Of a stretch of 20,000 nt of DNA, positions 1 through 19,048 are shown one piece after another. The stretch comes from an uncultured virus (IMG/VR IMGVR_UViG_3300032268_000966) (taxonomy: Duplodnaviria; Heunggongvirae; Uroviricota; Caudoviricetes), in IMG/VR virus record IMGVR_UViG_3300032268_000966. One strand, 5' to 3'. Made by a program: the position numbers and the translations under genes. The first letter of the stretch is position 1. Each line of letters starts with the position of its first letter. The notes beneath the pieces were generated by a model, which had not been told where the DNA came from, ran no database searches, and saw only the letters and a list, made by a program, of their open reading frames with translations.

Positions 1-707
1 CTATCTCCACTCTTACCGTGATTCAAATGAAATATATAATGGTCTAATACTTGGATGTTAGAATAAAATGAGGCTTTCTTCATTACGTTTGTATCAATAC
101 CACATCCAAACAATATTGATTCTTCAAAACCTTTCATTTGGTTCCATACGTTTTTGTGACCAATTTGATAGTCACCACAACAATTAATCAGGGACCATTT
201 ATCGGTTTCACTTTCAAGTCTTTCTTTAGTTCTATAACCATTACGGTTATCCCACAATGATTTATATAAACTATTATAGTCGTTAAATGATAGGTGAAAT
301 GATTCATCAACATCTCTTCTTGGAACGGTATAAAATACGTCTTCTTTTAATATAGAATTGTCAAGTGGAGTTGTAACAATATCGATATTAGTTGAAATAA
401 TATAATCGTTAGATACTCGTCTTAGTGCAATGTTTCTACTAATAGATTCTATCATTGAGTAGTTAACAATGTGCGGATATTTCTCAGTTAAAAATTCTTT
501 TGGGACTTGGATATACTTTAACTTTTTTGTGTGAGGTAAATTATGTTTTATATTAGAAATAACTCCTTCACTGTTTTTGGTTTTCCAATCTACAAAAACA
601 ACTTCATCATGATGTTCAATTAATGATGTTAATCCCATAGTAGTCCTCTTATGTAGATTACCACCATAATTATCATTTCTTGATGCTAATATTACAGATT
701 TTTTCAT
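1..707 (-). CDS. GT-A fold (GT2-like) glycosyltransferase, 3'-truncated by the window edge; paralog of 704..1570
   Basis: Not in the ORF track; translated by hand from ATG at 707 (ATGA overlap with the TGA of the upstream gene): MKKSVILASRNDNYGGNLHKR...VVFVDWK...RNIALRRVSNDYIISTNIDIV...CCGDYQIGHK...KGFEE...IFHLNHGKSGD, open to the window edge. Layout of beta1, DW, RN..LR, TNxD and HxxH is GT2-like. Confidence 0.75.
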   Translation of the reverse strand, partial: MKKSVILASRNDNYGGNLHKRTTMGLTSLIEHHDEVVFVDWKTKNSEGVISNIKHNLPHTKKLKYIQVPKEFLTEKYPHIVNYSMIESISRNIALRRVSNDYIISTNIDIVTTPLDNSILKEDVFYTVPRRDVDESFHLSFNDYNSLYKSLWDNRNGYRTKERLESETDKWSLINCCGDYQIGHKNVWNQMKGFEESILFGCGIDTNVMKKASFYSNIQVLDHYIFHLNHGKSGD

Positions 708-1570
708 AATTCAGTTACAGATATTTTATCATTACCTAATAGACCCCAAGAATCATCTTTGACATGTGAATCGCTTACTTGGGTGGACATTCGGCCAACA
801 ACTCCTTCTCTAGAATGGTCTATGTGTATAGATACTGTAGGTAATATAAATTGTTTTAATCCCAACTTAACAAAATCTTTAAGTATTAATCCGTCAAATA
901 AACCATATGTATAATGTTCAACATATCCCTTAACTTTTTGAAAATTAGATTTACTAACACCTAAAAAATCACCACTAGCACCTTCATGGTTTATATCCCA
1001 ATAAAATCCTTTATCTAATGATAGATAGTCCTTAGGTAATGTTAAATTGTGTGATGGTGTTGAATAAAAATGTAATGGATTTTCGATTAAAGAACGACCG
1101 TCGATTACATCAACGTCAATGTTACCAACATAAGGTAATCTTACATCGTATCGACATAATCTCATAAAAATATTTTCAGATATATTATCTTCAATATGAG
1201 ACCATAATTCAGGGAAGAAAAAATTATCAGGATTTGTAAAAATTAAATAATTTCCTGAAGAATGCCTTGCCCCAACATTTTTACCGTAATACTCAAATAA
1301 TTTAAAAAGTTTTGAGCCAACAATATTATTGTGTGTTTCTGATGGTACTGTTATAATTTTTGTATCAATATTTTTAGGAAATAAATATTTATATTGTTCG
1401 TAGAAAGGTAATCTATCATTTGGAGGATTCCAATCAACTAAAATTAGTTCATAATTTTGTTTATTTTTTATTTGGTTTAACCCATTAAAAAAAACTTTAG
1501 TTCTTAAATCTTGATATGCACCATATTCGTCATTTCTGGTTACACAAATAATTGAAATCTTATTCATCAT
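704..1570 (-). CDS. GT-A fold (GT2-like) glycosyltransferase
   Basis: KISIICVTRND start, YELILVDW, KNVGARHSSGNYLIFTNPD (DxD-equivalent region), GDFLGVSK..F.KVKGYVE, IHIDH. Confidence 0.75.
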   Translation of the reverse strand: MMNKISIICVTRNDEYGAYQDLRTKVFFNGLNQIKNKQNYELILVDWNPPNDRLPFYEQYKYLFPKNIDTKIITVPSETHNNIVGSKLFKLFEYYGKNVGARHSSGNYLIFTNPDNFFFPELWSHIEDNISENIFMRLCRYDVRLPYVGNIDVDVIDGRSLIENPLHFYSTPSHNLTLPKDYLSLDKGFYWDINHEGASGDFLGVSKSNFQKVKGYVEHYTYGLFDGLILKDFVKLGLKQFILPTVSIHIDHSREGVVGRMSTQVSDSHVKDDSWGLLGNDKISVTEL

Positions 1571-2220
1571 ATTTTTTTATAAAGTTTGTCACAAAACATT
1601 TTTCCATTTACCGAACTTCTATGGTGTGAACTATCTTTAATAAACTCAAAACCTTTTGATAGAATATGGTCATTAACTTTAGTTTCAAATTCAGAGCCTA
1701 AGTCAGATACTTCAATTATAATATAAGTAAAATTTTTGATTTCGTCACCAATACCTTCAAGTACTTGTAATTCAGCTCCTTCAGTATCAATGTTTAATAA
1801 ATCATAGTTATCAAACTTAAAACCTTCTCTTTGGAATAAAGTTTTAATGGTGATAGTTCTGGTTTTAATAACTTCTCCTTTTTGTTCAATTAGTGAACTT
1901 GAATCCTGATTGTTTGGCGGACAATATAAATCCAAATCTAAATCATCAACATTCCACGCTGCAAGATTATAAATTTTTTGGCCAAACTGTTCAATTTCAT
2001 TTCTAAATCTTTCATAAGACCTAGGGTTTGCTTCTAAAAATATTGAGTTGTCACCACAGTAGTGAGCATATTGTTTTGACTCCCAAGCATCCCAAGCACC
2101 TATGTGTAAGACTCCTTTCGGAGTCCAATTCAAATTATAAAATAAACCTTTGTTGTTTCCAAAATTATCAGTCCCAACAGGATTAGGGTCTTTATCCCAA
2201 AATGCTCCAAATAAACTCAT
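1567..2220 (-). CDS. FkbM-family SAM-dependent methyltransferase
   Basis: VLHIGAWDA motif I, FLEANP, LLNIDTEGAELQVLEG, IIIEV: characteristic FkbM/Methyltransf_21 pattern. Confidence 0.88.
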   Translation of the reverse strand: MSLFGAFWDKDPNPVGTDNFGNNKGLFYNLNWTPKGVLHIGAWDAWESKQYAHYCGDNSIFLEANPRSYERFRNEIEQFGQKIYNLAAWNVDDLDLDLYCPPNNQDSSSLIEQKGEVIKTRTITIKTLFQREGFKFDNYDLLNIDTEGAELQVLEGIGDEIKNFTYIIIEVSDLGSEFETKVNDHILSKGFEFIKDSSHHRSSVNGKMFCDKLYKKI

Positions 2221-2221
2221 G

Positions 2222-2893
2222 TTATTTTCTTTTTAAAATTATTTCTTCGGTTGCGTGACCAACGTTAGTAATTTGAACAATTTCCCAATCAGGTGCATTT
2301 TCACGTATCCATTTTTCACTTATAAAAACTACTCGAATTATTTCTTTACCATTCCAATTTTCAAAATTCGCCTGAGGGTTTCCGTCATGTTTATGTCTAT
2401 CTTCATCATTTAACATCCCATCATACATAACAAAAATACAACCTGTATTTGCAACCTCAGCTAAATTTTTAAAAACATCTGATTTAAATTCTAAAGGAAT
2501 ATGAGGAAGAACTGCATTGGTAAACATGAAATCAAATTTAATTGGAAACTTATCTGCAAAACTTTCCGTTAAATCGGATTGAACAAATTTTAAATTTTCT
2601 TTTTCATATTGTTTAGCGTAATTGATTCTATTATTGGATAAATCAATTCCATAAGTTTTTTCAAAAGTTTCACTTAAAACTCTGGTAAAATACCCTTGGG
2701 CACAACCAACGTCTAAACAATTTTTATTAATATTTTTATCTATTAAATTTTCAATTTTTGGAATTAAATTTTCTTTCATCCAATTAACATTTCTTTCAGG
2801 GTAACCTGTTTCAGAGCCAGGAGTTCCTTGTGGATTAATTAAACTTTCGTCTTCGAAATAGTTTTTTAACGCTTCTTTTATATTATCTATCAT
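2222..2893 (-). CDS. Class I SAM-dependent methyltransferase
   Basis: CLDVGCAQGYFT, YGIDLS, FVQSDL, FDFMFTNAVLPHIP. Confidence 0.88.
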   Translation of the reverse strand: MIDNIKEALKNYFEDESLINPQGTPGSETGYPERNVNWMKENLIPKIENLIDKNINKNCLDVGCAQGYFTRVLSETFEKTYGIDLSNNRINYAKQYEKENLKFVQSDLTESFADKFPIKFDFMFTNAVLPHIPLEFKSDVFKNLAEVANTGCIFVMYDGMLNDEDRHKHDGNPQANFENWNGKEIIRVVFISEKWIRENAPDWEIVQITNVGHATEEIILKRK

Positions 2894-2894
2894 A

Positions 2895-3278
2895 TTATTT
2901 ATATTTTACATATTCTTTTACTTCTCTAATTTCAGAATCAGTAAATTTATTAATTTCGTTTTTTAATCTAAACCTTTCGTCATTTGTGAAATAAACTTTT
3001 CTTGCAAAATCGATGAACTCACCCTCAAATCTTTTTTCGGTTTCTAACACTCTTAACCTATCTTCAATATCCCAAAGTTTTGAGTTAATGTCAACTAATT
3101 GATGATATAAAGACTCAATTTCAGGTTGGTCTAAATAACCTGATGATAAATTGTAAAGAAGTTCAAATTCTTTATTTATATATTCTAACTTTTCCTCGTT
3201 AGTGATTTTTGTTTGTTTTACGTGTAAGATGGATAATTTGTCAATTAACTCACCAACACTTACTGGTGATTGAATCAT
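2895..3278 (-). CDS. DUF6165-like protein (small helical protein found near glycosylation genes)
   Basis: PVSVGELIDKLSIL..K, VDINSKLWDIEDRLR, FARKVYFTNDERFRLKNEIN, EVKEY: matches my recollection of the DUF6165 consensus. Confidence 0.75.
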   Translation of the reverse strand: MIQSPVSVGELIDKLSILHVKQTKITNEEKLEYINKEFELLYNLSSGYLDQPEIESLYHQLVDINSKLWDIEDRLRVLETEKRFEGEFIDFARKVYFTNDERFRLKNEINKFTDSEIREVKEYVKYK

Positions 3279-3982
3279 AATATGTATGTTAAGTCTTTGT
3301 CGAACATATGTTCAACTTGATGAAAACTTGGTGGGTTATGTCTTGAATAAACCGTAACATTTTTCAAACCAAGTTTTGAGATTATGTAGAGAATTGATGT
3401 CTCTACGGTATAAATGTGTTTAGCCTTTAATAAAAGTCCAATCCAATCGAATAAATTATCCCAACCAAGATATTCCATCTCGACTGAGTTTTCATATTTT
3501 CCCATATGTGGACATGGTTTTGAATGTGGAGGTGAGCCAAACATTCTGTTAACAAAAACAAATTCTTTATCTTGTACACCATAGTGGTCAATAAGTTTTT
3601 GTTCTCTTTCTAAATTTCTTTCAAACTCGAAATAATCTAACCAGTCAGATGAGTCTATACTAACCATTTTATATTTTGCCTGCATAACAGAAATGTCAGG
3701 GAAATGTCTATCAAAATGTTGTATTGGTAGATAAATTGAATCATCAGCAATTTGTACAGGTTTACTGTACCCTTCCAAATAGATGTTTTTGTGAGGGAAA
3801 TTTTCATTTTCAGTTACAAATTTCAATCCATCAACTTTAATGTAGTTTTTGATAAATTCAAACTGTTGAATTACTGGCCACCAAACTTCATACCCTTTAG
3901 ATATTAAATCTTTGGCAATTTTTTGAGTGAAAAAAATATCTCCAATTCCCGCAGGCTGTCGTATTAAACAAATTTTAGACAT
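3275..3982 (-). CDS. Putative GT-B (GT9-like) glycosyltransferase
   Basis: N-terminal LIRQPAGIGDIFF (GxGD motif of heptosyltransferase-like proteins) and C-terminal FDWIGLLLKAKHIYTVETS resembling the GT9 'A..I.vDS' segment. Confidence 0.55.
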   Translation of the reverse strand: MSKICLIRQPAGIGDIFFTQKIAKDLISKGYEVWWPVIQQFEFIKNYIKVDGLKFVTENENFPHKNIYLEGYSKPVQIADDSIYLPIQHFDRHFPDISVMQAKYKMVSIDSSDWLDYFEFERNLEREQKLIDHYGVQDKEFVFVNRMFGSPPHSKPCPHMGKYENSVEMEYLGWDNLFDWIGLLLKAKHIYTVETSILYIISKLGLKNVTVYSRHNPPSFHQVEHMFDKDLTYIL

Positions 3983-4793
3983 AGTCTTTTAAGTGATTTT
4001 CAAAAATCCAATCGTCAAGAACACTGTATTTTTGTACTCTATCATAATTATCTTTAATAGCCTCTATTTTTGAATTATAAAGCTCTTCAGTTAGTGTTGT
4101 AATATCAAAAGTTCCATCAAAAAATATAATCCCATCTGAGTTAAAATATTCTGTAACTTTTGGAGTACCCATGTAAATTGGTATAGTACCAGTGGCAAAA
4201 CAATCTAATATTTTTTCTGTGAAATAAGTATCATAGGTGTCATTTTCAACACAGAATGAAAAACGGTAATCAACTAATCCAATTTCTTTGTTTGGGATTT
4301 CTTGGATACCTCTACCAAATACATCAATCTTATCTTGGTTTGCCATTGCAAAATCATGTCTGATTTCATGTTGGCGTGTCCATCTTTTATTTGATGTAAT
4401 CATAGATGCCATCTTAGTCTTTGGGTGTATTGCAAAGTCTTTAATGTAGACACCATAAGCGGGAGTCCATTTGAATTTAGGATTTAGTTGGAGTAGTTCA
4501 TCATTGTGAGTCCAAATTTGTTCAAAAGTCTCAAGAACCTCATCTAAATGTTTTTTAATATTATCTACCGCACCACCATCAAATCTTCTTGATTCAATAA
4601 TCCAAAGAAATTTTTTCTTAACTCCCCCATCAACTTTATGGTCTTCAATCCCTTTAAATAAATCATTATCTAAATAAACCGAAATAGGGTTATCGTAACT
4701 ATTAAAACACCACTCAATATGGACTGGTGGTTTATTGGCTGTTGAGCCTTTGTCATGAGAAAAATTTCTCGATAGCATATTTAACTTAACCAT
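3975..4793 (-). CDS. GT10-like (alpha-1,3/1,4-fucosyltransferase-type) glycosyltransferase
   Basis: IDVFGRG, K...L.DYRFSFCVENDTYDTYFTEKILDCFATGTIPIYMG = GT10 signature. Start more likely at 4793 (MVKLNML) or 4778 than at 4826, which would overlap the upstream gene by 46 nt. Confidence 0.8.
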   Translation of the reverse strand: MVKLNMLSRNFSHDKGSTANKPPVHIEWCFNSYDNPISVYLDNDLFKGIEDHKVDGGVKKKFLWIIESRRFDGGAVDNIKKHLDEVLETFEQIWTHNDELLQLNPKFKWTPAYGVYIKDFAIHPKTKMASMITSNKRWTRQHEIRHDFAMANQDKIDVFGRGIQEIPNKEIGLVDYRFSFCVENDTYDTYFTEKILDCFATGTIPIYMGTPKVTEYFNSDGIIFFDGTFDITTLTEELYNSKIEAIKDNYDRVQKYSVLDDWIFENHLKDYV

Positions 4794-5590
4794 CCGTCTT
4801 CGTATTTTACTTCTAATACAATCCAATTAGGTTCGTATATATCTTTATAGTTTCTTGGTCCTCTTGGTCCAAACCAAATTGAAGGAGCCACGATTTTCTT
4901 ATTAGGGTTAGGGTTCAAAAATGTACCCCACCATGAGAATGTAGAATTAACCATGATATGGTTTTTACATAATGACATTAACCACATCTCTCTATAATCA
5001 TCATCTTCAACGTAAGTTACGTTTTCAAACTTAAGATTTTCTTTAACCCAATCTTTGTCATCACTAAAAACAAATACATGAGAATATTCTCCAATTTCTT
5101 TAAGTGCTCTTTCAATATATATTTCATTTGCAATTGGATGAATGTCAGGATTCATAAAACAATCACCTCTACGAATGTGAACTGATAAAGTATTCTCTTG
5201 TTTTAGTTCAGGATGTTTTTCATACATCTCTTGAATAAATTCTTCTGTTGGAGAAAATATTTTTCTTATCTCGTCGTTATAACCAAAAAAGTTTTTGCTG
5301 CTTTGGAAGTACCCGTCAAACACAGTGTCGTGGTCTTTAGCGTAAACATCAATGTATTCCCATGGGCCTTCACTAACTTTTTCAAATCCGTCAATACTCT
5401 CAACAAATTTCATGTTTCTAAAGATATTATTAAGGTAGTTTTCAGTTTGTCTTCCTTGCATTGGTGTCCAAGAACGTGGTACAAAAACAGCCTCTCTGTT
5501 CAATTTCATTGCGTGTGATAATGCGTGTGCTGCTTGGAACATTTGATTTCCCAATCCACCCATTAAATTACATGATATTAAATTACTCAT
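4781..5590 (-). CDS. GT11 alpha-1,2-fucosyltransferase-like protein
   Basis: GGLGNQMFQ, DGYFQS, SVHIRRGD, FVFSDD, LMSLCKNHIMVNSTFSWWG: all GT11 motifs present. Confidence 0.93.
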   Translation of the reverse strand: MSNLISCNLMGGLGNQMFQAAHALSHAMKLNREAVFVPRSWTPMQGRQTENYLNNIFRNMKFVESIDGFEKVSEGPWEYIDVYAKDHDTVFDGYFQSSKNFFGYNDEIRKIFSPTEEFIQEMYEKHPELKQENTLSVHIRRGDCFMNPDIHPIANEIYIERALKEIGEYSHVFVFSDDKDWVKENLKFENVTYVEDDDYREMWLMSLCKNHIMVNSTFSWWGTFLNPNPNKKIVAPSIWFGPRGPRNYKDIYEPNWIVLEVKYEDGWLS

Positions 5591-6315
5591 CTAATTAATT
5601 TTTTTAATTTGGTTTTATTTCTTATTATGTTTGAACATCTTTCTTGTTCTTGGTGACCTCCACCTGTTGCACTTCCGACCTTATGGTCATTGTATGGGGA
5701 ACCCGCGTTATAAACATAATATAGGTTTGGTAAAAATCTATAATTCTCTTTTCCAGCTAATTCTAATAATGAGAATGTATATGCAACATCTGCTGCTGAT
5801 TTGAAATAACTTCCGTCATCGTCTCTCAAATAATCTTGAGGAATTGACTTCCATAAAAACGTTTTCCAAGTTCTTAGATGTGAAAATCTAAATGCGTCTT
5901 TTCTTACAGTATCTGGATTACATTCTGATGAAAACCCTGAATTTCCGTCAGAGTACATAAATGAACCGTTAGTTAACCAAATTGTTTTATCTGAGTAAAC
6001 TTTTCTAATATCACTGACAACTTCATTACTAAGTAAAAAATCATCACCGTCAATTTCAATTACAATATCTTCATTATCAAAAGTTGAAATTAATTCGTCT
6101 AAGTTTTTTAACTTAAACTTTTTTTCTGTATTAATTATAAGTTTAAACCTATCGTCTCCTTTAATTAAATTTTTAACAACCTCAACCGTATTATCAGTTG
6201 ACATGTCGTCAATTAGATAAACTTCAAATTCATTATCTTTTTGGGTTTTTAAAGTCCTAATACAATTTTTAATGTAATTTTCAGCATTCCAAAAACAACA
6301 AACAAATTTTATCAT
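5587..6315 (-). CDS. GT2 glycosyltransferase
   Basis: FWNAENYIKNCI, YLIDDMSTDNT, EIDGDDFL (DxDD), SAADVA. Confidence 0.9.
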   Translation of the reverse strand: MIKFVCCFWNAENYIKNCIRTLKTQKDNEFEVYLIDDMSTDNTVEVVKNLIKGDDRFKLIINTEKKFKLKNLDELISTFDNEDIVIEIDGDDFLLSNEVVSDIRKVYSDKTIWLTNGSFMYSDGNSGFSSECNPDTVRKDAFRFSHLRTWKTFLWKSIPQDYLRDDDGSYFKSAADVAYTFSLLELAGKENYRFLPNLYYVYNAGSPYNDHKVGSATGGGHQEQERCSNIIRNKTKLKKLIR

Positions 6316-7472
6316 TGTAAATTAATAACGTATCCTTCAGGTGTTGTACCTTGTTTATAGAATTTAAGTCTACCATTGTAAGATTCACTTAATGAGTGTA
6401 AGTTTTTAACTACCTCATCAATTTCGATAACATTAACCAAATAACCTTCATCTAATAAATCTATACATAATTTGAATTGTTGGGATTCTTCTAAAATATC
6501 TGTACCTCTTTTATATGTTATGTAATTCATAACAAATGGATTTTCTTTATTAGGGTTTAATGACATGTAATGGTTTTTTAGGAACAACGCGTGTTCTGTA
6601 TTAAAGTCATCCACAGTTAATGGTAAATTTAATTCCATACCTAAATTCTTAGCATAATATCCTAATGCTCGATTATCTCTTGGAAGACAAGGTCCTCCAA
6701 ACCCAAACCCGTATTTCATATATTTTTTACCAACTCTTGTATCTCCACCAATAGCACTTAACACTGTGTCAATTTCTAAGTTTAATCCTGATTTCATTAG
6801 GATATCACCCATCATGTTGGCGTAACTAATTTTAGTTGTTAAAAAACAATTAATTCCAATTTTTGTAATTTCTGCAGCCTTTGGACTCATAATATGAGCG
6901 TTGACAGAAGTTGTTTGTATTTTTTCGTAAATTTTAATTAGAAGATTTCCTAACTCAGGATAATCAGTTCCAATCAAAACAATATCAGATTGTTCAAGAC
7001 CTTTTACAATTTCCCCTTGAGCAATAAACTCTGGATTGTATGCCACTTGAGTATTAAAGACCGCAAGCTTCTTTTGAATTTGTTCGGTGTCACCAGGATT
7101 AGTAGTACACCCAATTATGAATTTTTTATCGTGAATAGGTAAATTTAATTGGGAAACCGTGAAAAAATCATTAGCTACCTCAAAAACTTTGGATGTATCG
7201 TAATTACCATCCACGGTTGATGGAGTAGAGACAAATGTGAATATTACATCACATTGTTTAATTATTTCAATGTTATCTGTAGTTGCACTAAAGTTATGTA
7301 CATCAAATAACATTTTTTGAATCTCAGGTTCATTAGTTAAACAAACTCCTTGATTTAAATTTTGTACATAATCTTCTCTTTTATCAGACACGAGTACATT
7401 GTATCCCGCCTTCTCACATAATAAAGCGAAAGTTAATCCTAATCTTCCTGCCCCAATAATTCCTATTTTCAT
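6312..7472 (-). CDS. ugd: UDP-glucose/GDP-mannose 6-dehydrogenase family protein
   Basis: IGIIGAGRLG Rossmann motif, FVSTPS, YNPEFIAQG, AEITKIGINCFLTTKISYAN, GFGGPCLPRD (catalytic Cys); C-terminal domain short and divergent. Confidence 0.88.
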   Translation of the reverse strand: MKIGIIGAGRLGLTFALLCEKAGYNVLVSDKREDYVQNLNQGVCLTNEPEIQKMLFDVHNFSATTDNIEIIKQCDVIFTFVSTPSTVDGNYDTSKVFEVANDFFTVSQLNLPIHDKKFIIGCTTNPGDTEQIQKKLAVFNTQVAYNPEFIAQGEIVKGLEQSDIVLIGTDYPELGNLLIKIYEKIQTTSVNAHIMSPKAAEITKIGINCFLTTKISYANMMGDILMKSGLNLEIDTVLSAIGGDTRVGKKYMKYGFGFGGPCLPRDNRALGYYAKNLGMELNLPLTVDDFNTEHALFLKNHYMSLNPNKENPFVMNYITYKRGTDILEESQQFKLCIDLLDEGYLVNVIEIDEVVKNLHSLSESYNGRLKFYKQGTTPEGYVINLQ

Positions 7473-9900: not shown

Positions 9901-9904
9901 ATAA

Positions 9905-10522
9905 TTAAATTATTCCCGTACTTCCAAATCCGTTATCACCTCTGTCCTTATCTTCAATTTTATCAATCTTTTCTAATTGTACAAAAGTACCATTAACAAC
10001 AGGACATAAGACAGCTTGAGCAATTTTCATTCCTTTGGTTACAATCACTTCATGATTATTTGTATTAAACATAATCACTTTAATTTCTCCATTATAACCT
10101 GAATCAACAGTTCCTGGTGTGTTTAGTACTGTTAATCCTTGGTTTATTGCTAAACCACTTTTAGGTCTAACTTGTATTTCATATTCATCAGGTATAGATA
10201 ACTTAAGACCTGTTGGAATTAATGCTCTTCCGAATGCGGATAGTTTATAATCTATTGTTGAATATAAATCAAACCCTGAATCAGACGGGTAAGCGTAAGA
10301 TGGAAATTTCGCATCTTCGTGTATTAATTCAACACCAAGACGTTTAGTTCTAAGAGTTATTTCAGTCTCTCTGTTCATTTCTTCAACTGACATTCCCAAC
10401 ATATCTTCTAATTGTTTTATATAATCTAAATCAGGTTCTATTCCTGAATCTGATTTTATCTTTTCAAATTGTTCTAAAACTTGTGACCAAACCTCTGGGG
10501 TTACTTCATTATCTTGTTTCAT
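9905..10522 (-). CDS. dut: dUTP diphosphatase (trimeric type) with ~60-aa N-terminal extension
   Basis: All five motifs: SGFDL, RPKSGLA, GTVDSGYNGEIKV, KIAQAV, RGDNGFGSTG. Confidence 0.95.
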   Translation of the reverse strand: MKQDNEVTPEVWSQVLEQFEKIKSDSGIEPDLDYIKQLEDMLGMSVEEMNRETEITLRTKRLGVELIHEDAKFPSYAYPSDSGFDLYSTIDYKLSAFGRALIPTGLKLSIPDEYEIQVRPKSGLAINQGLTVLNTPGTVDSGYNGEIKVIMFNTNNHEVIVTKGMKIAQAVLCPVVNGTFVQLEKIDKIEDKDRGDNGFGSTGII

Positions 10523-11223: not shown

Positions 11224-12434
11224 TATATGATTGATTTATAAAATTCTGCTCTTGTTTTTGTTACAACATTAAGGTCGTACTTGTCCTTTACGGTCTCATA
11301 TAACCTTTCTCCCATATCTTTTGCTAAGTTAGGATTTTTTACCAACTTCTCAATAAATTTTGGCCAATCGGCGTGATTTCTATTTTCATTTACTAACATA
11401 GCATTACCGTCAACAAACTCACCATTTTTCATACAATGTTTTAAATCGATAGTATAAGGACCTAAGTCAGATGCTATTAATGCTTTCTTATAAAATCCAG
11501 CTTCAATAACTTTCAACTGAGATTTCATTCTATTAAACATTGTGTTTTTAATTGGTGATAAGGACACATCAAATTTAGCATAATTTTTTGCATATGATGT
11601 TACTGGTTTAGTCCAAACTCTCAAATATGGTTCGTCAATATCACCAGTATAACTTTCTTGATTATAGTTAATCAAATGTTTTTTATACTCATCGGATACA
11701 ATTGAATAGTTCTGTGTAAAGATTTTTTCATACTGAGCCCAAACAGTTTCATGAGGAAGAATATTACGTTTAGTTTGTTCTCCTGTTTGTGCATTAATTT
11801 CAGTTACACTACCTCTAGTGTCAAATCCACATAATACATATTGAAGTTTATCTTTCAAAGAAAAAATCTTACCAAACCCTTGGTCTAATAATTGAATATC
11901 ATGTAAGTGGGAAGAACCTCCTAACCAACCAATTCTAAGTCTATCAGACTCTAATGTTGGTTCTTTAAATTGAGATTCGTTTGGATTAATTGCGTTAGGA
12001 AATACAACAACATTCTTATTTAATTTACTAATTTCATCAGCAAATAAAGATGTTGTGGTTGTAACATACTTTGCAACTTTTAAGTTCGCAGTAATTTTTT
12101 CATTAATCTTGTGAACTTTAATAATATCGTGGATGGGGTGTTCTTTACCAGGCATCCAATAATCATCAATATCACAAACAGTTATAACTCCTAATGAGTT
12201 TAACATTTGAATAAGACGATGAGCCCTTTCAAAATCGGGTCCGATACTTCTATGGAATGAAACTATTTGATATTGAGTCCAATAGTTAACGTCATCATAC
12301 GGTGGTTCATAAACGATATCGACGTGAAAATCATCAGGATAGAGATTTTGTAAAAAGATGTGCGGGTCTACTGACCTAAACTTACCAACTCCTGTTCTAT
12401 CGGATGGTACAACGAGTACTTTGATTTTTGACAT
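11223..12434 (-). CDS. GT-B (GT4-like) glycosyltransferase
   Basis: TGVGKFRSVDPH, CDIDDYW, VTTTTSLFA, VFPNAI, IGWLGGSSHLHD, FDVSLSPIK..FNRMKSQLKVIEAG, IASDLGPY. Confidence 0.85.
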   Translation of the reverse strand: MSKIKVLVVPSDRTGVGKFRSVDPHIFLQNLYPDDFHVDIVYEPPYDDVNYWTQYQIVSFHRSIGPDFERAHRLIQMLNSLGVITVCDIDDYWMPGKEHPIHDIIKVHKINEKITANLKVAKYVTTTTSLFADEISKLNKNVVVFPNAINPNESQFKEPTLESDRLRIGWLGGSSHLHDIQLLDQGFGKIFSLKDKLQYVLCGFDTRGSVTEINAQTGEQTKRNILPHETVWAQYEKIFTQNYSIVSDEYKKHLINYNQESYTGDIDEPYLRVWTKPVTSYAKNYAKFDVSLSPIKNTMFNRMKSQLKVIEAGFYKKALIASDLGPYTIDLKHCMKNGEFVDGNAMLVNENRNHADWPKFIEKLVKNPNLAKDMGERLYETVKDKYDLNVVTKTRAEFYKSII

Positions 12435-12451
12435 AAATTTTAATATATACT

Positions 12452-12475
12452 CAAAAGTATAACAAAATATGTCAA
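12452..12475 (-). promoter_or_regulatory. Candidate host-RNAP promoter for the glycosylation cluster
   Basis: The 54-nt gap upstream of the 12434 start reads, on the minus strand, TTTGACATATTTTGTTATACTTTTGAG: TACTTTTG (12459-12452) fits the Bacteroidota -7 TAnnTTTG consensus; TTGACA at 12475-12470. Spacing is non-canonical. Confidence 0.45.
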
Positions 12476-12488
12476 ATAAGAAAAGGTG

Positions 12489-13118
12489 TTAGGCCAACTT
12501 TTTAATTTTGGTAACTTTACCTTCAAACACGTGCTTACCTACTTTAAAGCTAAAAATTTCATTAGATTTTTCAGAACTTTCCATAAGTAATCCGTTTTCT
12601 CTAAGTGCATTACTTACGGCTTCATTAATCATTTTTTGAATTAATTTGTAATTAATACCACTAACACTAGAAGTTTGTTGTGGAGATTCCGATTGAGTTT
12701 TTGGTTTTGCTGATTCAGGAACATATCCACTATCATTACCTCTCATCAATCTTGACGCTCTTTCAATTAAGTCATTAGATAATGTTGCTTCAGGTTGTTG
12801 TTGTTGCGCAATTGGATGTTCCATCATTAACCTCTTAATATCATCAGGAAGTTTTGAATTTTTAATTGCATCAACGGTTGGATTACCAACTGGTTTTGTA
12901 TTCACTCTAGGGAGCTCTGATAAATAAGGTTGTTGAACTTGTGGTTGTTCTTGTAGATATTCTTGAGGAATATTATACTTTGCTTGTGGCATATCAAAAT
13001 CTTGCAAAGATGTTGGAGGTAATCCTCCACTCATTGTATTATTACTTTTACCAAATTTTGGACTATCCATAATAGCTTTAGATGCCGCTAATCTGCTCAT
13101 TAAATCATTTTCGTTCAT
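12489..13118 (-). CDS. Hypothetical phage protein, Q/P-rich
   Basis: 209-aa ORF in a tightly packed string; low-complexity middle, IKNSKLPDDIKRLMMEHPI core, C-terminal beta-hairpin FSFKVGKHVFEGKV. Confidence 0.75.
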   Translation of the reverse strand: MNENDLMSRLAASKAIMDSPKFGKSNNTMSGGLPPTSLQDFDMPQAKYNIPQEYLQEQPQVQQPYLSELPRVNTKPVGNPTVDAIKNSKLPDDIKRLMMEHPIAQQQQPEATLSNDLIERASRLMRGNDSGYVPESAKPKTQSESPQQTSSVSGINYKLIQKMINEAVSNALRENGLLMESSEKSNEIFSFKVGKHVFEGKVTKIKKLA

Positions 13119-13124
13119 AATATA

Positions 13125-13598
13125 TTAAGTTTGTGGAGTTGGAGTAGGCGTTGGTGTTTCTTGTGTTGGTATTTCTTGTGTTGGTTGTGGTTGTTGTGTT
13201 TCTTGAGGTTGTTGATTATCAAATTTTGCATTGATAATTACACTGACCATACTTTTATCTCCGTTAAAATTATAATTAGGCTTTGGAGTATTGTAAACTT
13301 CACCTGTTGGTTTAATTGACAATATCTTGTCTAACCTAAAAATTCTCCATCCTGGTAATGGTTGTTCTCCCTTATATGCTGTGTGAGAAGCACCTTCATC
13401 ATCCCAAGCTCTTAAAATCTTGTTGCCCGCTTTACTTGTTCCTAAGCAAACAGGTTCAATTTGTCTAATACCTCTACCACCTGGTTCATCACCATCATAA
13501 TAGATAATCACTATCTGTCTTTTTTTAATGGCGTCAACAACACCATCGATAGAAGCGATTTCACATATTAGACCTTTAAGTGCTTGATTTAATTTCAT
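13125..13598 (-). CDS. Stand-alone WYL-domain protein with Q/P/T-rich tail
   Basis: AIKKRQIVIIYY, RQIEPVCLG, LRAWD, WRIFRLDKILSI = WYL-like pattern; no N-terminal wHTH and no C-terminal WCX recognisable. Confidence 0.75.
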   Translation of the reverse strand: MKLNQALKGLICEIASIDGVVDAIKKRQIVIIYYDGDEPGGRGIRQIEPVCLGTSKAGNKILRAWDDEGASHTAYKGEQPLPGWRIFRLDKILSIKPTGEVYNTPKPNYNFNGDKSMVSVIINAKFDNQQPQETQQPQPTQEIPTQETPTPTPTPQT

Positions 13599-13891
13599 TA
13601 AAAATTAGGATAAGTTTTTGATGAATTAAATTTGTTAATTTTGATTTCGTTTTTTCTTTCCATAACGTCGTCAATAGTTCCAGCGTTTACGTTGTAGACA
13701 TCTAAGAAGGTACCTGTACCTCTACCCATAGAATCTCCGTCGGCAACAGCATCTCTGTTTACTGATGAATATTCATTACCTACAGCGTTATAGTCGTTTT
13801 TTGGTATTAATTTAGCTCTTTCCGCTTCAGCATAGGCTGTAAGTGCGTTTGGTTCGTTTTGAGATAAATCAACAATTAGTTCATTTGCCAT
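13598..13891 (-). CDS. Hypothetical phage protein
   Basis: 97-aa ORF with TAATG overlap to the next gene; contains ADGDSMGRGTG. Confidence 0.7.
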   Translation of the reverse strand: MANELIVDLSQNEPNALTAYAEAERAKLIPKNDYNAVGNEYSSVNRDAVADGDSMGRGTGTFLDVYNVNAGTIDDVMERKNEIKINKFNSSKTYPNF

Positions 13892-13893
13892 GA

Positions 13894-14370
13894 TTATAAT
13901 TTTGAAATTAGTTCGTTTATTCTTTTTAGGCTTTCAGTTACCGCAGTATTATATCTATAAACGGTACTGGTATGTTCTTGTGAAGGCCTTACATTATTAA
14001 AGTTTTTCTTTTCGTGAGGTTTTAAAAACTGATTTTGCATTCCTGCATTCATTTTATTTGTTTTGGTCATTTTTTCGTAATCTCTCATTTTCCTCAATTC
14101 ATTTTCCACCCAATTTTTCATTACAACACCCCCATTTAAAATAAACGGAGCTTCATTATGATTACCACTAAAATTATCAAAAAAGTTTTTAATCCTTTTT
14201 AATTGTTTGTATTCAATAAAATTTTGACCTTGTAGTTCTTGATTTCTATTAAACCCTTCAATATTTTCATTGGCACCTTTAACCATACGGAAACATTTTT
14301 TCATGTGTTCCTGTTTGTCTTTAGGAAATTCAATTTCTCCTTTGGCCGAATTATATAGGTCCTTATTCAT
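13894..14370 (-). CDS. Hypothetical phage protein, possibly head-associated
   Basis: 158-aa ORF; core G.NR.QEL...LKRIKNFFD...LNGG..M.NW; ends VTESLKRINELISKL. Confidence 0.7.
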   Translation of the reverse strand: MNKDLYNSAKGEIEFPKDKQEHMKKCFRMVKGANENIEGFNRNQELQGQNFIEYKQLKRIKNFFDNFSGNHNEAPFILNGGVVMKNWVENELRKMRDYEKMTKTNKMNAGMQNQFLKPHEKKNFNNVRPSQEHTSTVYRYNTAVTESLKRINELISKL

Positions 14371-14371
14371 A

Positions 14372-15187
14372 TTATTTTTTTAATTCTGTTCTTAGAAATT
14401 TAATCAAGTCATCAATTTGAAGACCTTGACGTTCTGCTTGTTTTTTTAAGTTAGCAATATTTCTTTTTAGAATTTTAAAATCGTCAACATTCTTTTCATT
14501 CACGTCACCATCTTCTGAAGATTTCTTATTTGCCAAAAGGTCCTCAACCATTTTGATTGCCTTTTGTTTTTGAATCTCAGATAATGTTGCTCTTGTGATA
14601 AAGTTTTTATCTTTATAGTATTTTGATTTTTTATCTTTCTTACCTGATGGGTCTTTACCTTGTTGCTTTGTTCTTTCTTTAGCATCATCAGGTTCCATTC
14701 CCATATCTTTAACCAAATATTTGTAAGTGTCTTCACCATCCATGTCTTCAGTTTCCTCATATCCAAACGCTCCTGACATGTCAATTTCTTTCATTTCACT
14801 TTCACCATAGTAAGTTCTATATCCACGAGAGATTGGGTCGTTTGTAATTCTTGATGCCGCCACAGTTTGGTCCATAGTTTTTCTTGGGTGAAGCCTAGGG
14901 TCTAAAATAGGAATTGCAGAGTTTGACATTGCTCCGTCAGCATTAACCAGTTCTTCCAAATCTTTTTTTAAAGTTTTGGTATCCTTAATTTTTTTCTCTT
15001 TGGCAACTTTTTTTAAATGTTTTTTTACTTTCTCACCCTTACTTTTTTCGAAGTGAATTACCTCGTCTTTTTTGCGAGCTTCAGTTAAATTTCCTTCCAC
15101 AGAGAAATATAAGGAATATTTACTCCCCTTGTCTCTTAAGAGAAAATAATATGGCGATGAATAAAATTCGGTATCTGTTGCAATCAT
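14372..15187 (-). CDS. Hypothetical highly charged phage protein
   Basis: 271-aa K/E/D-rich ORF, first gene of the leftward block, preceded by GTATTTAT. Confidence 0.75.
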   Translation of the reverse strand: MIATDTEFYSSPYYFLLRDKGSKYSLYFSVEGNLTEARKKDEVIHFEKSKGEKVKKHLKKVAKEKKIKDTKTLKKDLEELVNADGAMSNSAIPILDPRLHPRKTMDQTVAASRITNDPISRGYRTYYGESEMKEIDMSGAFGYEETEDMDGEDTYKYLVKDMGMEPDDAKERTKQQGKDPSGKKDKKSKYYKDKNFITRATLSEIQKQKAIKMVEDLLANKKSSEDGDVNEKNVDDFKILKRNIANLKKQAERQGLQIDDLIKFLRTELKK

Positions 15188-15202
15188 CTGTTCTTTTTAT
15201 CA

Positions 15203-15230
15203 TATAAATACCACGACACAATGTATTTAT
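15203..15230. promoter_or_regulatory. Divergent promoter region with an 8-bp inverted repeat (putative phage late promoters)
   Basis: ATAAATAC (15204-15211) and GTATTTAT (15223-15230), 11 nt apart, in the 52-nt gap between divergent genes; TATAAATA at 15203-15210 equals the T4 late promoter consensus. Confidence 0.6.
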
Positions 15231-15239
15231 CATTAGTTT

Positions 15240-17933
15240 ATGGCATATCAAAATATAAATCAATATAATTTTAGACGATGGGGTATTAAACCTGTCAACG
15301 AAGTCACGGACATTTGTCTCGCGTCAGATGAGAAAGACTACGACCAAGAAGTTATTTTTTCACCATTGTTAATTGGTGAGGATAATGGTAATAGAATGCC
15401 TTTTAAATTTGACTTTAATAGTTCAGGGACTACAAAATGTCAAACAAATTTGTGTACATTTGATGATGATACTATTGTATCTGAAAACTATTGGAATCCG
15501 ACTGATACAGACCCTAATTTTTGTCCCATTGTTACTGAGTTATGTGATGTTGGTTTGACAGGTATTGACAATGGACTTGTTAAAAACATGTCAGGTGAGA
15601 CTATTGAAATCACAACTGGTCTTTACGAAACAGAGTCAGACAGATTTAGTAGATATAAATATGATAGGAGAATGAAAATGCACCCTATCACTGGTTTCAC
15701 AACTTCAGAAAATAGATTGTGGAACGACAACTCTTATACCTATGATATGTATTACGCCACAGATGGTAATCCTGTGGGTTATTTTGCCAGATTAAACGGA
15801 GGGTTTTTTCAAGGTTTTTATAAGTTACCAGGATACGACTATCAGGTGTTCCCTCAAAGAGTATCGTTAGGGTGGACAGCTGAATTTATGTTAAGATACA
15901 GATGGACAGGAGATACTTCTGTCGGACTTAATTCAAGGTATCCTGATAATAAGGGAACCTTTTTCTACATGGGAGCGAGAGCCGAAAACAAATTCTATCA
16001 CTATGCTGATGGTGAACCAAAACAAGATACAGGGTATACAAGAGTGACCTCAGGGTTAACTTGTATGCATACTTGTGGATGTGCAAGTACTGCGAATACT
16101 TCATCTGAATGTCTACAGGTGTATCAACCATCGGGAGGTACGATAACTCATTGTACTTGTGGTTGCCCTTGTGATTGTGAGTCACATGCCAAATATCCTG
16201 AAAAGGACCCGTTATATGATGGTGTGTCAAATGCGTTGTCTTTAAGATTAAGTGGAGATACAGGTAGTCCAAGACTATGTGTTAAGACATATAGAATAAC
16301 AGGAGGGTGTGAACATAGTGGAACTTGTCTTACAGGATTGACTTACCACACTGGAACATCTGTAACCGAATGGTGTTCTACGAGAGGAATATTTGATGAT
16401 TGTAGTGGGACTACTTATCCTAACGTTGAACATTGGGTTCAAATAGATGCCGTATTTCAAAGAAAGGAATGGTTTGATACCTGTGACCTATATGAAAAAG
16501 GAGGACTTGGTTTGTTAGTTGATGATGTATATTTTGCAACATTAGAGAATAGAAGTGTAACATTAGTTGAACCTCCAATAACACATGACCCAGGATATAT
16601 TCCACCTTCAACAGAGGTTGTTACGTTTACTGATATGTGGACCGAAGAACAAAAATATAGATTAGGTACTCTTAAGTTTTATGTTAATGGTAAATTATTT
16701 TTGGTGGCTGAAAATTTCGAGGAAATAATTCCAAGACTTCTTAATGTTGAAAAAGAAAAACAAATTGGAGTTGGATATAATATTTCAGTTGGTGGTGGTA
16801 CTCAAGGTCTTCACGACAACTTAACATTCTCTGCAGGGTGTCCCGCAGAGTTAAGTGGTATTACATATCAACAAGACCCTGAATGTTTAACAGATTATGA
16901 CTTAGAACATACTGAATACTCAGGTCTTACAACTCAAATAAGGTTAGAAGAAATTTTTGGTGGTAGTATGATTGGTGATGTTAGTGCATTTAGAATGTAT
17001 ACAGAACCATTAAACGCTTCTCAAATTAGACATAACTTTAAATTATTAAAGAATAGATATAATTTATTAGACCCTAATTGTCTTAATTGTAGAATTTTTA
17101 TTCCAAACAACGACTTGTTGTATATCTCAGTACCGTGTAATGATTTAGGATATTTGATGGTACCATGTAATGATTTGTTTTCTTCTTTATACCCATGTCC
17201 AACATCAACCCCTACTAACACTCCAACTACCACATCAACACCAACAAATACATCAACCCCTACTAACACTGAAACTCCAACTTCTACGGCTACTGTTGGA
17301 TTAACACCTACTGCAACAGAAACTCAGACACCTACACCAACAGAGACTCCGACTCAAACTCCAACTAACACCGAAACACCAACTAACACACCAAGTGAGA
17401 GTCCTACACAGACTCCAACACAAACCGCAACTCCATCTACAACTGCAACTATTGGATTAACACCAACTCCAACAGAAACTCAAACACCAACTCCAACTGA
17501 AACACCTACTAATACACCAACTAATACGGAAACTCCAACAAACACTCCAAGTGAAACTGCGACAGAAACTCCTACTAATACTCCAACCAATACTCAAACT
17601 CCAACAAACACTGTAACTCCAACTAATACAGAAACCCCAACAAATACACCAACTAACACACCAAGTGAGAGTCCTACACAAACTCCTACACAAACGGTAA
17701 CTCAAACTACAACACCTACAACAACAAGTACTCCAACAACTACACCTACAAATACTACAACTCCAACACCTACACCGACTAGTTCACCAACACCAACTAC
17801 AACATCTACACCGACTAATACACCAACAACAACTCCAACCCCAACATCAACCCAACTATACTTCTTATTATTTGAAGATGATTCAATTGCTACGGCAGAA
17901 AATAACGATGATATTGAAATAGATATTATATAA
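15240..17933 (+). CDS. Large Cys-rich putative virion protein with split LamG/concanavalin-like elements and a mucin-like Thr/Pro stalk
   Basis: 897 aa; [51 protein letters not shown] resemble LamG strands and the terminal helix; about 27 Cys; ~218-aa T/P tract; acidic C-terminal [15 protein letters not shown]. Confidence 0.7.
17100..17189 (+). repeat. Three 30-nt (10-aa) coding repeats
   Basis: [10 protein letters not shown] / [10 protein letters not shown] / [10 protein letters not shown]. Confidence 0.75.
17199..17852 (+). repeat. Thr/Pro-rich coding repeat tract (TPTNT/TPTET/TPTQT)
   Basis: Seen directly; includes an exact 35-bp duplication at 17376-17410 and 17646-17680. Confidence 0.95.
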
Positions 17934-17949
17934 AAAAAAATAGAATAAA

Positions 17950-18456
17950 ATGGCAAATACAAAAATAAGTCAATTACCAACATTTACGGGAAATACTAAT
18001 GGGTCGTTTATTGTTATGAACAATAGTGGTAATACGCAGTCATTTAAGGTGGCTAAAGAAACATTATTTAGTGGATATTCAACAAATGTAGTGTCACCAG
18101 TCTCAGGAAGTTGGACTTTATCAACAGGTGCAAATACTGTTAGTTTCACAGTTACTCCAGGTCAATCATATGTTATGTGGGTGAATGGAAATATTCCAAG
18201 TGGTATTGTTAATTGGAATGCAACAGTAACACTATCAAACACAAATGTACCTGCAATAGGTGTACAATATGGTTGGTATTATCTCGCGGGAAATGCTTTG
18301 GAGTTAACATCAATACCAAGTCAGATAGTCGGAACTGCGGGAAGTATTAGTACATCAGCACCAGCGGGTTCAAATACAAATACCTTTACATTTGGTATAA
18401 CCAATAACAGTGGTACATCTCAAATAGTATATTACGGATATATTAAAATAAGTTAA
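17950..18456 (+). CDS. Putative virion/tail-fibre-associated beta-rich protein
   Basis: N-terminal MANTKISQLP motif typical of phage fibre-associated proteins; S/T/G/N-rich with few charged residues. Confidence 0.65.
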   Translation: MANTKISQLPTFTGNTNGSFIVMNNSGNTQSFKVAKETLFSGYSTNVVSPVSGSWTLSTGANTVSFTVTPGQSYVMWVNGNIPSGIVNWNATVTLSNTNVPAIGVQYGWYYLAGNALELTSIPSQIVGTAGSISTSAPAGSNTNTFTFGITNNSGTSQIVYYGYIKIS

Positions 18457-18478
18457 AATTAAAATACGGACTATAAAA

Positions 18479-19048
18479 ATGTATACAACAGACTGTAACT
18501 ATTTTATTATAACCAACTACAATAATGTCGAACAAGGATATTATAGATGGACTGGTTGTACGGATACAATTAGTGTTTCATCAATTAACCCGTTACAAGT
18601 ACAATATGTTTGTGCTAAGAATTTAATTGTTGAAAGTTATGGAGCACCTCTTACAATATCCTTAGTAGGATTATGCCCTTCAACAACACCAACTCCAACT
18701 ATTACATCAACACCAACTCAAAGTTCTGTAACGCCAACTCCAACCTCAACTTCTCCAACACCAACACCCACAACAACACCAACGGTTACACCAACAACAG
18801 TTTATATGTATAATCTAAGAACAGGTGGTTGGTACCAAAATGTTTGTCAATCTGTTAGTATGACAGCAAATCCTAAAAACGTAACAATCTACACTTCAAA
18901 ACCTTTTGAAATTTTGGAAGTTGGAGATTACGTATATGGTAACCAATCTTTAACTATTCCACCAATAGATGCCAATTTTACAATCTCAAACGGAGGTAGA
19001 TTTATTCAACTTAGCGGTAATCAAATTATTAATGTTGGGGTATGTTAA
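18479..19048 (+). CDS. Putative virion protein: two small Cys-containing beta domains joined by a Thr/Pro linker
   Basis: 189 aa; CPSTTPTPTITSTPTQSSVTPTPTSTSPTPTPTTTPTVTPTT linker at 18677-18799. Confidence 0.7.
   Translation: MYTTDCNYFIITNYNNVEQGYYRWTGCTDTISVSSINPLQVQYVCAKNLIVESYGAPLTISLVGLCPSTTPTPTITSTPTQSSVTPTPTSTSPTPTPTTTPTVTPTTVYMYNLRTGGWYQNVCQSVSMTANPKNVTIYTSKPFEILEVGDYVYGNQSLTIPPIDANFTISNGGRFIQLSGNQIINVGVC

Follow-up and report, generated by a model that had tools for sequence, protein, structure and literature searches.

Self-glycosylation of phage particles has been documented in few cases. The fibrils of mimivirus are glycosylated by soluble machinery which the virus itself encodes. 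Likewise, the glycan machinery acting on the virion protein Vp54 of chlorovirus PBCV-1, which comprises transferases, sugar-nucleotide enzymes and methyltransferases, is virus-encoded, soluble and independent of the membrane pathway of the host (PMC5852040). In mycobacteriophages, glycosyltransferases (GTs) encoded by the phage modify its own structural proteins, and the glycans are located at the C-termini of capsid and tail-tube subunits (Freeman et al. 2023, as cited in PMC12619734). For the Xanthomonas jumbo myophage XacN1 at least two Schiff-stained glycoprotein bands, not assigned to particular proteins, are reported for purified virions (PMC5852040, legend of Suppl. Fig. S4), and its authors suggest that the two GTs of the phage make them (PMC5852040). 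Here we describe a 20-kb window, which is the whole stretch of 20,000 nucleotides (nt) that was analysed, from the uncultured virus record IMGVR_UViG_3300032268_000966, in which a minus-strand island of sugar genes stands back to back with plus-strand genes for Thr/Pro-rich proteins. We tentatively favour the reading, to which we give slightly less than even chances, that the phage O-glycosylates the (Thr-X)n stalks of its own virion appendages with soluble cytoplasmic enzymes.

The locus would share with the mycobacteriophages the modification of own structural proteins by phage-encoded GTs. It differs in the candidate acceptors, which here are long Thr/Pro stalks on lectin- or fibre-like proteins, and in an enzyme set which is far larger and includes nucleotide-sugar synthesis and methylation. 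PBCV-1 and mimivirus, which are giant viruses of eukaryotes, use different enzyme families and a different attachment chemistry. XacN1, Xoo-sp13 and the Stenotrophomonas phages CM1 and RAS14 are, like the lineage described here, jumbo myophages with a homologue of a GT60 enzyme. XacN1 however has no Thr/Pro block beside its GT60 cassette and, in the 25 kb examined, no large island of fucosyltransferase, methyltransferase and dehydrogenase genes, and the 897-aa Thr/Pro protein of the window finds no match in the cultured collection. In Dictyostelium the cytoplasmic Skp1 pathway pairs a GT60 enzyme with a fucosyltransferase. According to PMC8724618 the GT60 enzymes of protists (Dictyostelium, Trypanosoma cruzi) are polypeptide alpha-GlcNAc-transferases which start mucin-type O-glycans. 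The present lineage resembles them in the PF11397 match and in the nearby Thr-rich, mucin-like tracts, which are of the acceptor type named there; its enzyme differs in being phage-encoded, presumably cytoplasmic and known as a sequence only. The assembly of lipooligosaccharide (LOS) and of the lipopolysaccharide (LPS) core has in common with the locus a GT9-like fold, GT25, HtrL/YibB, GT10/GT11 and nucleotide-sugar enzymes that work without flippase, polymerase or initiating phosphoglycosyl transferase, but it has no place for a GT60 enzyme or for the adjoining Thr/Pro proteins. Four core orthogroups of the 'moraphages' are GTs, for which virion glycosylation is named as one possibility (PMC12619734). 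Apart from that comment and the remark on XacN1, the open-access papers that were searched do not describe GT60 enzymes, fucosyltransferases or Thr-rich acceptors for phages.

The window is AT-rich (GC 0.27-0.37) and consists of a packed train of minus-strand genes, running from 15187 down to base 3, and of plus-strand genes from 15240 to the window end. When the window was compared with cultured-phage records by megablast, nothing matched. With the conserved core of the 897-aa protein as query, 147 related stretches in viral contigs were collected. Gene-presence counts given below refer, for the left side, to the 61 relatives with enough left flank, within a limit of 10 kb, and, for the right side, to those 60 relatives whose right flank reaches 9 kb or more. 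The contig G001 (59.5 kb, viral) is 94% identical to the window over 1560-19457. To the right of the window it carries a GT60 gene, a GT25 gene, an HtrL-domain gene, PolB, a superoxide dismutase fusion, an SNF2 helicase, and genes for a tail sheath of 1068 aa, a gp19-type tube and T4-type baseplate proteins. To the left are a NeuD/PglB/VioB-family acetyltransferase, a PseC-like aminotransferase, a Zn-dehydrogenase, an epimerase/dehydratase of the short-chain dehydrogenase/reductase type, PhoH, and GT1- and GT2-like genes. The relatives G005 (326,291 bases) and G006 (309,177 bases) are both 100% complete by CheckV; G005, which is related at 81%, has a T4-type large terminase (Terminase_6N) together with the same sugar island. 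Because of the sheath, tube and baseplate genes in G001 and the terminase in G005 the phage origin, which had been left for checking in the first-pass annotation, can be confirmed. By its genes the DNA is assigned to a freshwater, T4-related lineage of jumbo myophages of roughly 310-330 kb, an assignment that holds for the relatives and not for the window's own assembly. The sheath is just 26-32% identical to those of cultured phages, with 31.8% for the best cultured match.

That the divergent genes encode long Thr/Pro tracts, as had been noticed earlier, is confirmed by the tract composition. The 897-aa protein (15240-17933, plus strand) comprises a lectin-like jelly-roll core (aa 1 to about 620), IPxNDLxY repeats, a (Thr-X)n tract of 231 aa and an acidic tail of 21 aa. 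The tract (aa 646-876, nt 17175-17867) is 47% Thr and 20% Pro, and 85% of its Thr residues are followed by another Thr at position +2. The core belongs to a large family, for which 675 clusters were obtained at E <= 1e-3 and, under the stricter limit of E <= 1e-30, still 113. No Pfam or PHROG model extends over the core, and a PHROG scan of 17 distant homologues gave no match there either, the matches sitting in C-terminal extensions. The AlphaFold model of the core (predicted local distance difference test, pLDDT, 86) is a lectin jelly roll of the ConA/LamG type with insertions. Its structural neighbours include the tailspike of the cyanopodophage Pan3 (Z 15.2, 243 residues aligned, root mean square deviation 8.2), the carbohydrate-binding modules AbnA domain 4 (Z 14.7) and CBM40 (Z 12-13), and tailspike 2 of CBA120 (Z 10.8). 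A viral structure library yielded matches to many ConA-like phage proteins and to two 'virion structural proteins' of S-PM2 (E 2.8e-5 and 1.2e-4). Foldseek against the PDB returned nothing at E <= 0.001. Its weak top rows show the lectin-like jelly-roll subdomain of clostridial neurotoxin binding domains, which is also found among the structural neighbours; what is shared is a common fold, and a toxin function is not indicated.

The homologues of the 897-aa protein are hypervariable in their C-terminal part, with total lengths of 631 to 1785 aa and a Thr/Pro/Ser-rich stretch of 0 to 497 residues, and the C-terminal ends of 57 distinct homologues belong to recurring, swappable types. An acidic peptide of about 22-25 residues (FLLQED...QEDG..I) is found directly after the Thr/Pro tract, at 17868-17933 in the window and, in several variants, at the end of many homologues within L008-L087.

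The candidate for a protein-directed initiating enzyme is encoded just outside the window. In G001 the gene directly after the last Thr/Pro gene (L004:1948-3213) encodes a 421-aa protein that matches PF11397, the GT60 family, at 8.4e-67 (226.5 bits vs a cut-off of 21), and matches above the cut-off are also found in G002, G005 and G006. PF11397 was matched by none of the 25 window ORFs (open reading frames), the G001 gene starting about 1.6 kb past the right end of the window. Of the 60 relatives 57 have a GT60 gene. Without exception it shares the strand of the homologue of the 897-aa gene and follows it at a distance of 1.8-8.7 kb, in which as many as four Thr/Pro ORFs are accommodated; the protein is among the most conserved of the locus (84-100% identity). 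Since the hydropathy scan shows no hydrophobic segment it is presumably cytoplasmic. A sequence search against solved structures found nothing. To judge from family membership and gene order, the protein is likely to be the initiating enzyme, with activity, donor and acceptor as predictions. The suggestion of the first-pass annotation that the glycan is assembled directly on protein thereby gains a candidate initiator, one that lies beyond the window and whose acceptor is deduced.

The association of Thr/Pro genes with GT genes recurs in the complete genome G005. Seven of its nine Thr/Pro ORFs are located beside a GT60 or GT9 gene. A second cluster, far from the main locus at 295-303 kb (L105:7388-15238), comprises four Thr/Pro ORFs, one of them with DUF5122 beta-propeller repeats, and is adjoined by a PF01075 GT9 gene (L105:15574-16515). 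For the other two of the nine, at 150 kb and 188 kb, no glycosyltransferase was found among the neighbours scanned. In the block that corresponds to the plus-strand genes of the window G005 has a collagen-repeat ORF with matches to tail-fibre PHROGs.

Among cultured phages homologues of the GT60 protein with 44-47% identity are encoded by Xoo-sp13, XacN1, CM1 and RAS14, that of XacN1 being 45% identical. In XacN1 the GT60 homologue stands in a syntenic cassette with homologues of u293 (28%) and of the HtrL-domain protein (41%); a GT9 gene lies in the vicinity. It is thus a cultured phage with a GT60 homologue whose virions show glycoprotein bands.

In the sugar island (1-12434, minus strand) the scans of ORFs and families bear out the earlier count of eight glycosyltransferase-like genes, two methyltransferases and a nucleotide-sugar dehydrogenase, three of the GT calls being weaker than the others. 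Two of the genes encode putative fucosyltransferases. The GT11-type (alpha-1,2) gene at 4781-5590 matches PF01531 at 4.5e-28 (98.8 bits vs a cut-off of 23.9, covering model positions 34-297 of 298) and phrog_2644 at 1.8e-47. The GT10-type (alpha-1,3/4) gene at 3975-4826 matches PF00852 at 1.2e-8 (35.3 bits vs a cut-off of 23.9; 43.1 bits for the orthologue in G005); as listed it starts with TTG at 4826, and the first in-frame ATG is at 4793. By the model cut-offs both are members of CAZy fucosyltransferase families, for which donor and linkage are predictions. The dehydrogenase (6312-7472) is a predicted nucleotide-sugar 6-dehydrogenase of the UDP-glucose dehydrogenase type, in the UDP-glucose/GDP-mannose dehydrogenase family (PF03721 and PF00984; TIGR03026 204.6 bits vs a cut-off of 189.8). 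The two methyltransferases are an FkbM-family enzyme at 1567-2220 (PF05050 2.3e-13; TIGR01444 51.6 bits vs a cut-off of 37.7) and a class-I enzyme dependent on S-adenosylmethionine at 2222-2893 (PF13847 and PF08241, 1e-12 to 1e-13).

The remaining GTs are diverse. Family matches identify a GT2 enzyme at 5587-6315 (PF00535 3.8e-17) and a two-domain enzyme at 8272-9900, in which a GT-A domain (PF13712, 8e-33) is joined to a GT4 N-domain (PF13439, 2.1e-9). The GT-B enzyme at 11223-12434 has no Pfam match and is recognized by phrog_7162 (1.1e-41); homologues with about 26% identity are annotated as glycosyltransferases in Phapecoctavirus-type coliphages. The gene at 704-1570 is probably of the GT-A (GT2-like) type, as indicated by a sub-threshold PF00535 match (E 0.024) and by an Atlas neighbour cluster of which 82% carry PF00535 (score 0.99). 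Its neighbour at 3-707, whose 3' end lies beyond the window and which is 276 aa long in G001, has no match in Pfam, NCBIfam or PHROG, and is called GT-A-like by its likeness to 704-1570 and nothing else (BLASTP, 28% over 145 aa, 5e-10). The 235-aa product of 3275-3982 is, from its AlphaFold model (pLDDT 93.4) and Foldseek, a putative compact GT-B enzyme with a GT9-like fold. The nearest structure is the GT9 structure 3tov (E 3.9e-5, TMq 0.52-0.55), followed by WaaC (E 1.6e-3) and the protein heptosyltransferase TibC (5e-3), and the Atlas lead is a GT9 cluster (score 0.93). No family match was obtained for it in Pfam or NCBIfam, the sequence search against solved structures was empty, none of its 116 homologues carries PF01075, and BLASTP against the GT9 genes of G005 and XacN1 revealed no likeness.

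The island is a mixture of stable and variable parts. The two-domain GT is present in 57 of the 61 relatives and the GT-B gene at 11223-12434 in all 61, while GT11 was found in 15 and GT10 in seven of them, counts that are limited by the 10-kb flank. The GT-A gene 704-1570 is an insertion compared to close relatives and missing from G001-G004, the FkbM gene 1567-2220 is missing from G002-G004, and the DNA around the turnover region 704-2220 is 86-96% identical. Judged from these comparisons, the gene content of the island shifts between near-identical relatives, as it does in O-antigen loci.

The earlier statement that the window encodes no membrane protein is supported by the hydropathy scan, which finds none among the real genes; the sole strongly hydrophobic ORF (17702-17983, minus strand) is antisense to the Thr-coding tract. 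The sugar genes of G001 contain no transmembrane ORF, and G005 no polytopic membrane ORF, with a maximum of four hydrophobic segments among its 317 ORFs of at least 100 aa. PF01943 (Wzx), PF02397 (phosphoglycosyl transferase), PF00953 (WecA/MraY-type) and PF04932 (Wzy/ligase) were found in none of four relatives, two of them complete, in searches that recovered these families in 13, 9, 12 and 9 of 14 positive-control genomes, respectively. The cluster hence does not run into wzx, wzy or other export genes as far as these four families are concerned; families of ABC transporters were not searched. From the lack of a flippase a protein target had been deduced beforehand. The absence of lipid-linked families holds, and the deduction is weaker than it was stated because LOS-type GT9, GT25 and HtrL enzymes act on lipid A-core without a phage-encoded exporter.

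Two back-to-back promoter-like boxes with the motif RTATTTAT lie 12 nt apart in the 52-nt gap between the divergent genes, at 15204-15211 (minus strand) and 15223-15230 (plus strand), and both are kept in all 76 relatives examined. In the window the motif is as frequent as expected by chance (7 vs 6.8), so that the meaning of the boxes there rests on their position and on the enrichment in G005, where the motif occurs within 60 nt upstream of 57 of the 317 ORFs (3.9 expected). It precedes there the genes for sheath, tube and collagen fibre, the homologue of the 897-aa gene and many small genes that follow a terminator-like hairpin with a T-run. Neither a further box nor a credible terminator was detected inside the minus-strand train, which may therefore, with its approximately 20 genes, be a single transcription unit that diverges from the Thr/Pro gene. 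As 7 intrinsic terminators were counted vs 8.7 expected, they give no information on operon breaks. A T4-type late promoter was also considered, since TATAAATA stands 30 nt ahead of the 897-aa gene and is conserved in 75 of 76 relatives. It was discarded, because this sequence is the reverse complement of the RTATTTAT box of the minus-strand gene; TATAAATA lies upstream of just 14 of the 317 ORFs in G005. Further RTATTTAT boxes of the window are located at 19070-19077 and 19618-19625.

Taken together, a sequence of steps can be proposed for the glycosylation of the stalks. The minus-strand train would supply activated sugars, with uronic acid made via the dehydrogenase, as well as the soluble transferases and the two methyltransferases, and the genes just left of the window in the relatives would contribute an N-acetylated amino-deoxy sugar. 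The GT60-type polypeptide alpha-GlcNAc-transferase would then start O-glycans on Thr residues in the cytoplasm, the GT2, GT4, GT25, HtrL and GT9-like enzymes would lengthen them, the GT11 and GT10 enzymes would cap them with fucose and the methyltransferases would finally O-methylate them. The outcome would be stiff, protease-resistant, strain-specific 'bottle-brush' stalks on the phage appendages. In its most complete form this proposal is a membrane-free mucin-type pathway, in which GT60 seeds GlcNAc on the stalks of lectin-like fibres, some 20 genes of a hypervariable island in the window and its left flank provide for strain-specific fucosylated, methylated glycans with uronate and amino sugars, and gain and loss of genes generate particle 'serotypes'. 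We consider this full version rather doubtful.

Several observations weigh against the glycosylation of own stalks. It is adjacency and the shared promoter gap that connect the window's own enzymes (1-12434) to the tracts, and the RTATTTAT box, as a general promoter-like motif in front of 57 of 317 ORFs, gives no timing. The train also carries NadE, dUTPase and a PolB-type exonuclease and, interleaved in it, DUF6165 and the five genes without assigned function described below, none of which the first-pass annotation had listed. GT9, GT25 and HtrL are classically families of LPS-core enzymes. The presence of GT60 in the window's own genome is deduced from relatives at 94-96% identity. About 20 of the 78 homologues of the 897-aa protein lack a Thr/Pro tract, which therefore is dispensable for the core protein. 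The fold matches of the core all represent one common lectin fold, and a shared fold does not show function; the tail-fibre PHROG matches of the collagen ORF in G005 are due to repeat sequence. No PHROG, Pfam or cultured-phage match places the 897-, 168- or 189-aa protein in the virion, and tblastn of the three against cultured phages gave no match. The Thr/Pro proteins fit outward-facing fibre or adhesin proteins, a location suggested by fold and gene neighbourhood. Among the 12 ORFs beside the GT60 cassette of XacN1 no Thr/Pro-rich gene was found, save for 43 residues in ORF325. Finally, the lineage is uncultured, and the one related experimental observation is the Schiff staining of virion bands in XacN1. 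Of the first-pass proposal, a methylated glycan with fucose and uronate that soluble enzymes build on virion proteins, the phage origin and the missing export families stand, and the GT60 candidate speaks in its favour; the link of the window enzymes to the tracts does not go beyond adjacency.

The same LPS-related families lead to the alternative that the island remodels the envelope of the host. In T4-like cyanophages, clusters of LPS-type genes have been interpreted along these lines. On the inner side of the membrane, soluble or peripheral transferases would decorate the host's lipid A-core, LOS or another host glycoconjugate, MsbA or further exporters of the host would finish the process, and the Thr/Pro proteins would be unrelated neighbours. 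The effect would be an altered cell surface, which for example blocks superinfection or the adsorption of progeny to debris. The fold of 3275-3982 is nearest to LPS heptosyltransferases (3tov, WaaC), the families GT25 ('LPS biosynthesis') and HtrL/YibB adjoin GT60 in the relatives, and GT10, GT11, the dehydrogenase, the PseC-like aminotransferase and the NeuD/PglB/VioB acetyltransferase are typical of O-antigen or LOS loci. The variation of the island among close relatives resembles that of O-antigen loci, too, and because sequential LOS-type synthesis needs neither Wzx nor Wzy nor a phosphoglycosyl transferase, their absence is no counter-argument. However, the most conserved GT of the locus is GT60, a family known only for protein O-glycosylation, in 57 of 60 relatives its gene is the one that comes next after the Thr/Pro genes, and XacN1, which has the same cassette, shows glycoprotein bands in its virions. 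TibC, which acts on protein, is also among the fold neighbours of 3275-3982, and from the GT9, GT25 and HtrL families or folds present the acceptor is not readable. No host, and hence no matching host acceptor, can be named for the lineage. We regard envelope remodelling, including its effect on the cell surface, as unlikely, if clearly worth considering.

It is less probable still, and in our view quite improbable, that the tracts are plain linkers, which carry no sugars and serve as flexible spacers in modular fibre or adhesin proteins, and that the island glycosylates another product of the phage, for instance other sites in capsid or tail proteins or a small molecule. The tracts do join interchangeable modules and vary from 0 to 497 residues, about 20 of 78 homologues do without a tract, XacN1 has glycoprotein bands with no Thr/Pro gene beside its GT60 cassette, and two of the nine Thr/Pro ORFs in G005 have no GT among the neighbours scanned. 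On the other hand, a Thr at every second residue (0.85) exceeds what a spacer needs and forms a dense array of hydroxyl groups, and the other seven of the nine ORFs in G005 adjoin a GT60 or GT9 gene. Hypermodification of DNA, in which some transferases and especially the core GT-B would glycosylate modified phage bases to escape restriction, is very improbable: the GT-B gene (11223-12434) does sit among genes of nucleotide metabolism, and phage GTs that modify DNA are well known (PMC12619734), but the thymidylate-synthase-family gene of a relative is a true ThyA (TIGR03284, 311 bits vs a cut-off of 108; no other hydroxymethylase was searched for). We are not aware of fucosyltransferase, GT60 or sugar-methylating families in DNA modification, which counts against it as well.

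If the stalks are glycosylated as proposed, an abundant lineage of freshwater jumbo phages, represented by 147 related viral contigs, would make mucin-like glycoproteins with its own soluble enzymes. This would explain why jumbo phages carry so many glycosyltransferases, and models of how phages adsorb, stay stable and evade recognition would gain a layer of glycans. The enzymes would also constitute a compact cytoplasmic toolkit for the O-glycosylation of Thr-rich tags in bacteria. If, instead, the host envelope is the target, the island would rank with the largest sets of phage genes that alter the surface of the host.

A hydroxyproline acceptor was considered as well, by way of PF13640, a family of prolyl-hydroxylase-type Fe(II) oxygenases dependent on 2-oxoglutarate (2OG-Fe(II)). 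G005 encodes three such ORFs, located far from the locus (312-322 kb, L109-L111). The family is absent from G006, G002 and G001 and is therefore not a conserved part of the system.

Among the other genes of the minus-strand train, 2895-3278 encodes a DUF6165 protein (PF19662 2.1e-11), 7469-8272 the NAD+ synthase NadE (PF02540 4.6e-51; TIGR00552 193 bits), 9905-10522 a dUTPase (PF00692 9.7e-28) and 10522-11223 a PolB-type 3'-5' exonuclease (PF10108 1.9e-13). NadE, which is not a glycan enzyme and is present in 22 of the 61 relatives, adjoins the NAD-consuming nucleotide-sugar dehydrogenase. The head of the train, between the last GT and the divergent Thr/Pro gene, is formed by five conserved genes of unknown function (12489-15187), for which the scans of Pfam, PHROG and NCBIfam were empty except for a weak WYL match. 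Each of these five, as well as the dUTPase and the exonuclease, is kept in all 61 relatives.

On the plus strand, conserved flanks enclose a variable block that extends from the core of the 897-aa protein to GT60: in G002 the flanks are 96-100% identical, the 168-aa protein 56% and the 167-aa repeat protein 61%. The 168-aa protein (17950-18456) has no family match and is present in 17 of the 60 relatives. The 189-aa protein (18479-19048), found in 53 of 60, has two small domains which are connected by a Thr/Pro linker of 52 aa (aa 61-112, nt 18659-18814); in L079 and L082 its type of C-domain is fused to the 897-aa core. The 167-aa protein (19082-19585) consists of an N-module of 67 aa and of 4.4 tandem copies of a 20-aa repeat. 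The underlying repeat (19313-19577, 60-nt unit, 4.4 copies that are 94% alike) encodes GELLYDIIPLDNLSALDIPN, and since the orthologue in G001 has 127 aa instead of 167 aa, a change in the copy number is implied. The IPxNDLxY motif of this repeat is also found in the 897-aa protein, ahead of its Thr/Pro tract, and many homologues of that protein terminate in it.

The last gene of the window (19638-20000) is the start of a gene that in G001 encodes the N-module together with a beta-carbonic-anhydrase domain of the LCIB/LCIC type (PF18599 6.9e-29 on the 359-aa protein, L006:17774-18853). The 67-aa N-module is common to 19082-19290 and 19638-19850 (49% identity, E 2e-15), while the C-terminal parts are unrelated, and it may serve as a shared point of attachment for exchangeable cargo domains. 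The LCIB/LCIC-type carbonic-anhydrase gene, an unusual cargo for a phage, is present in two of the 60 relatives.

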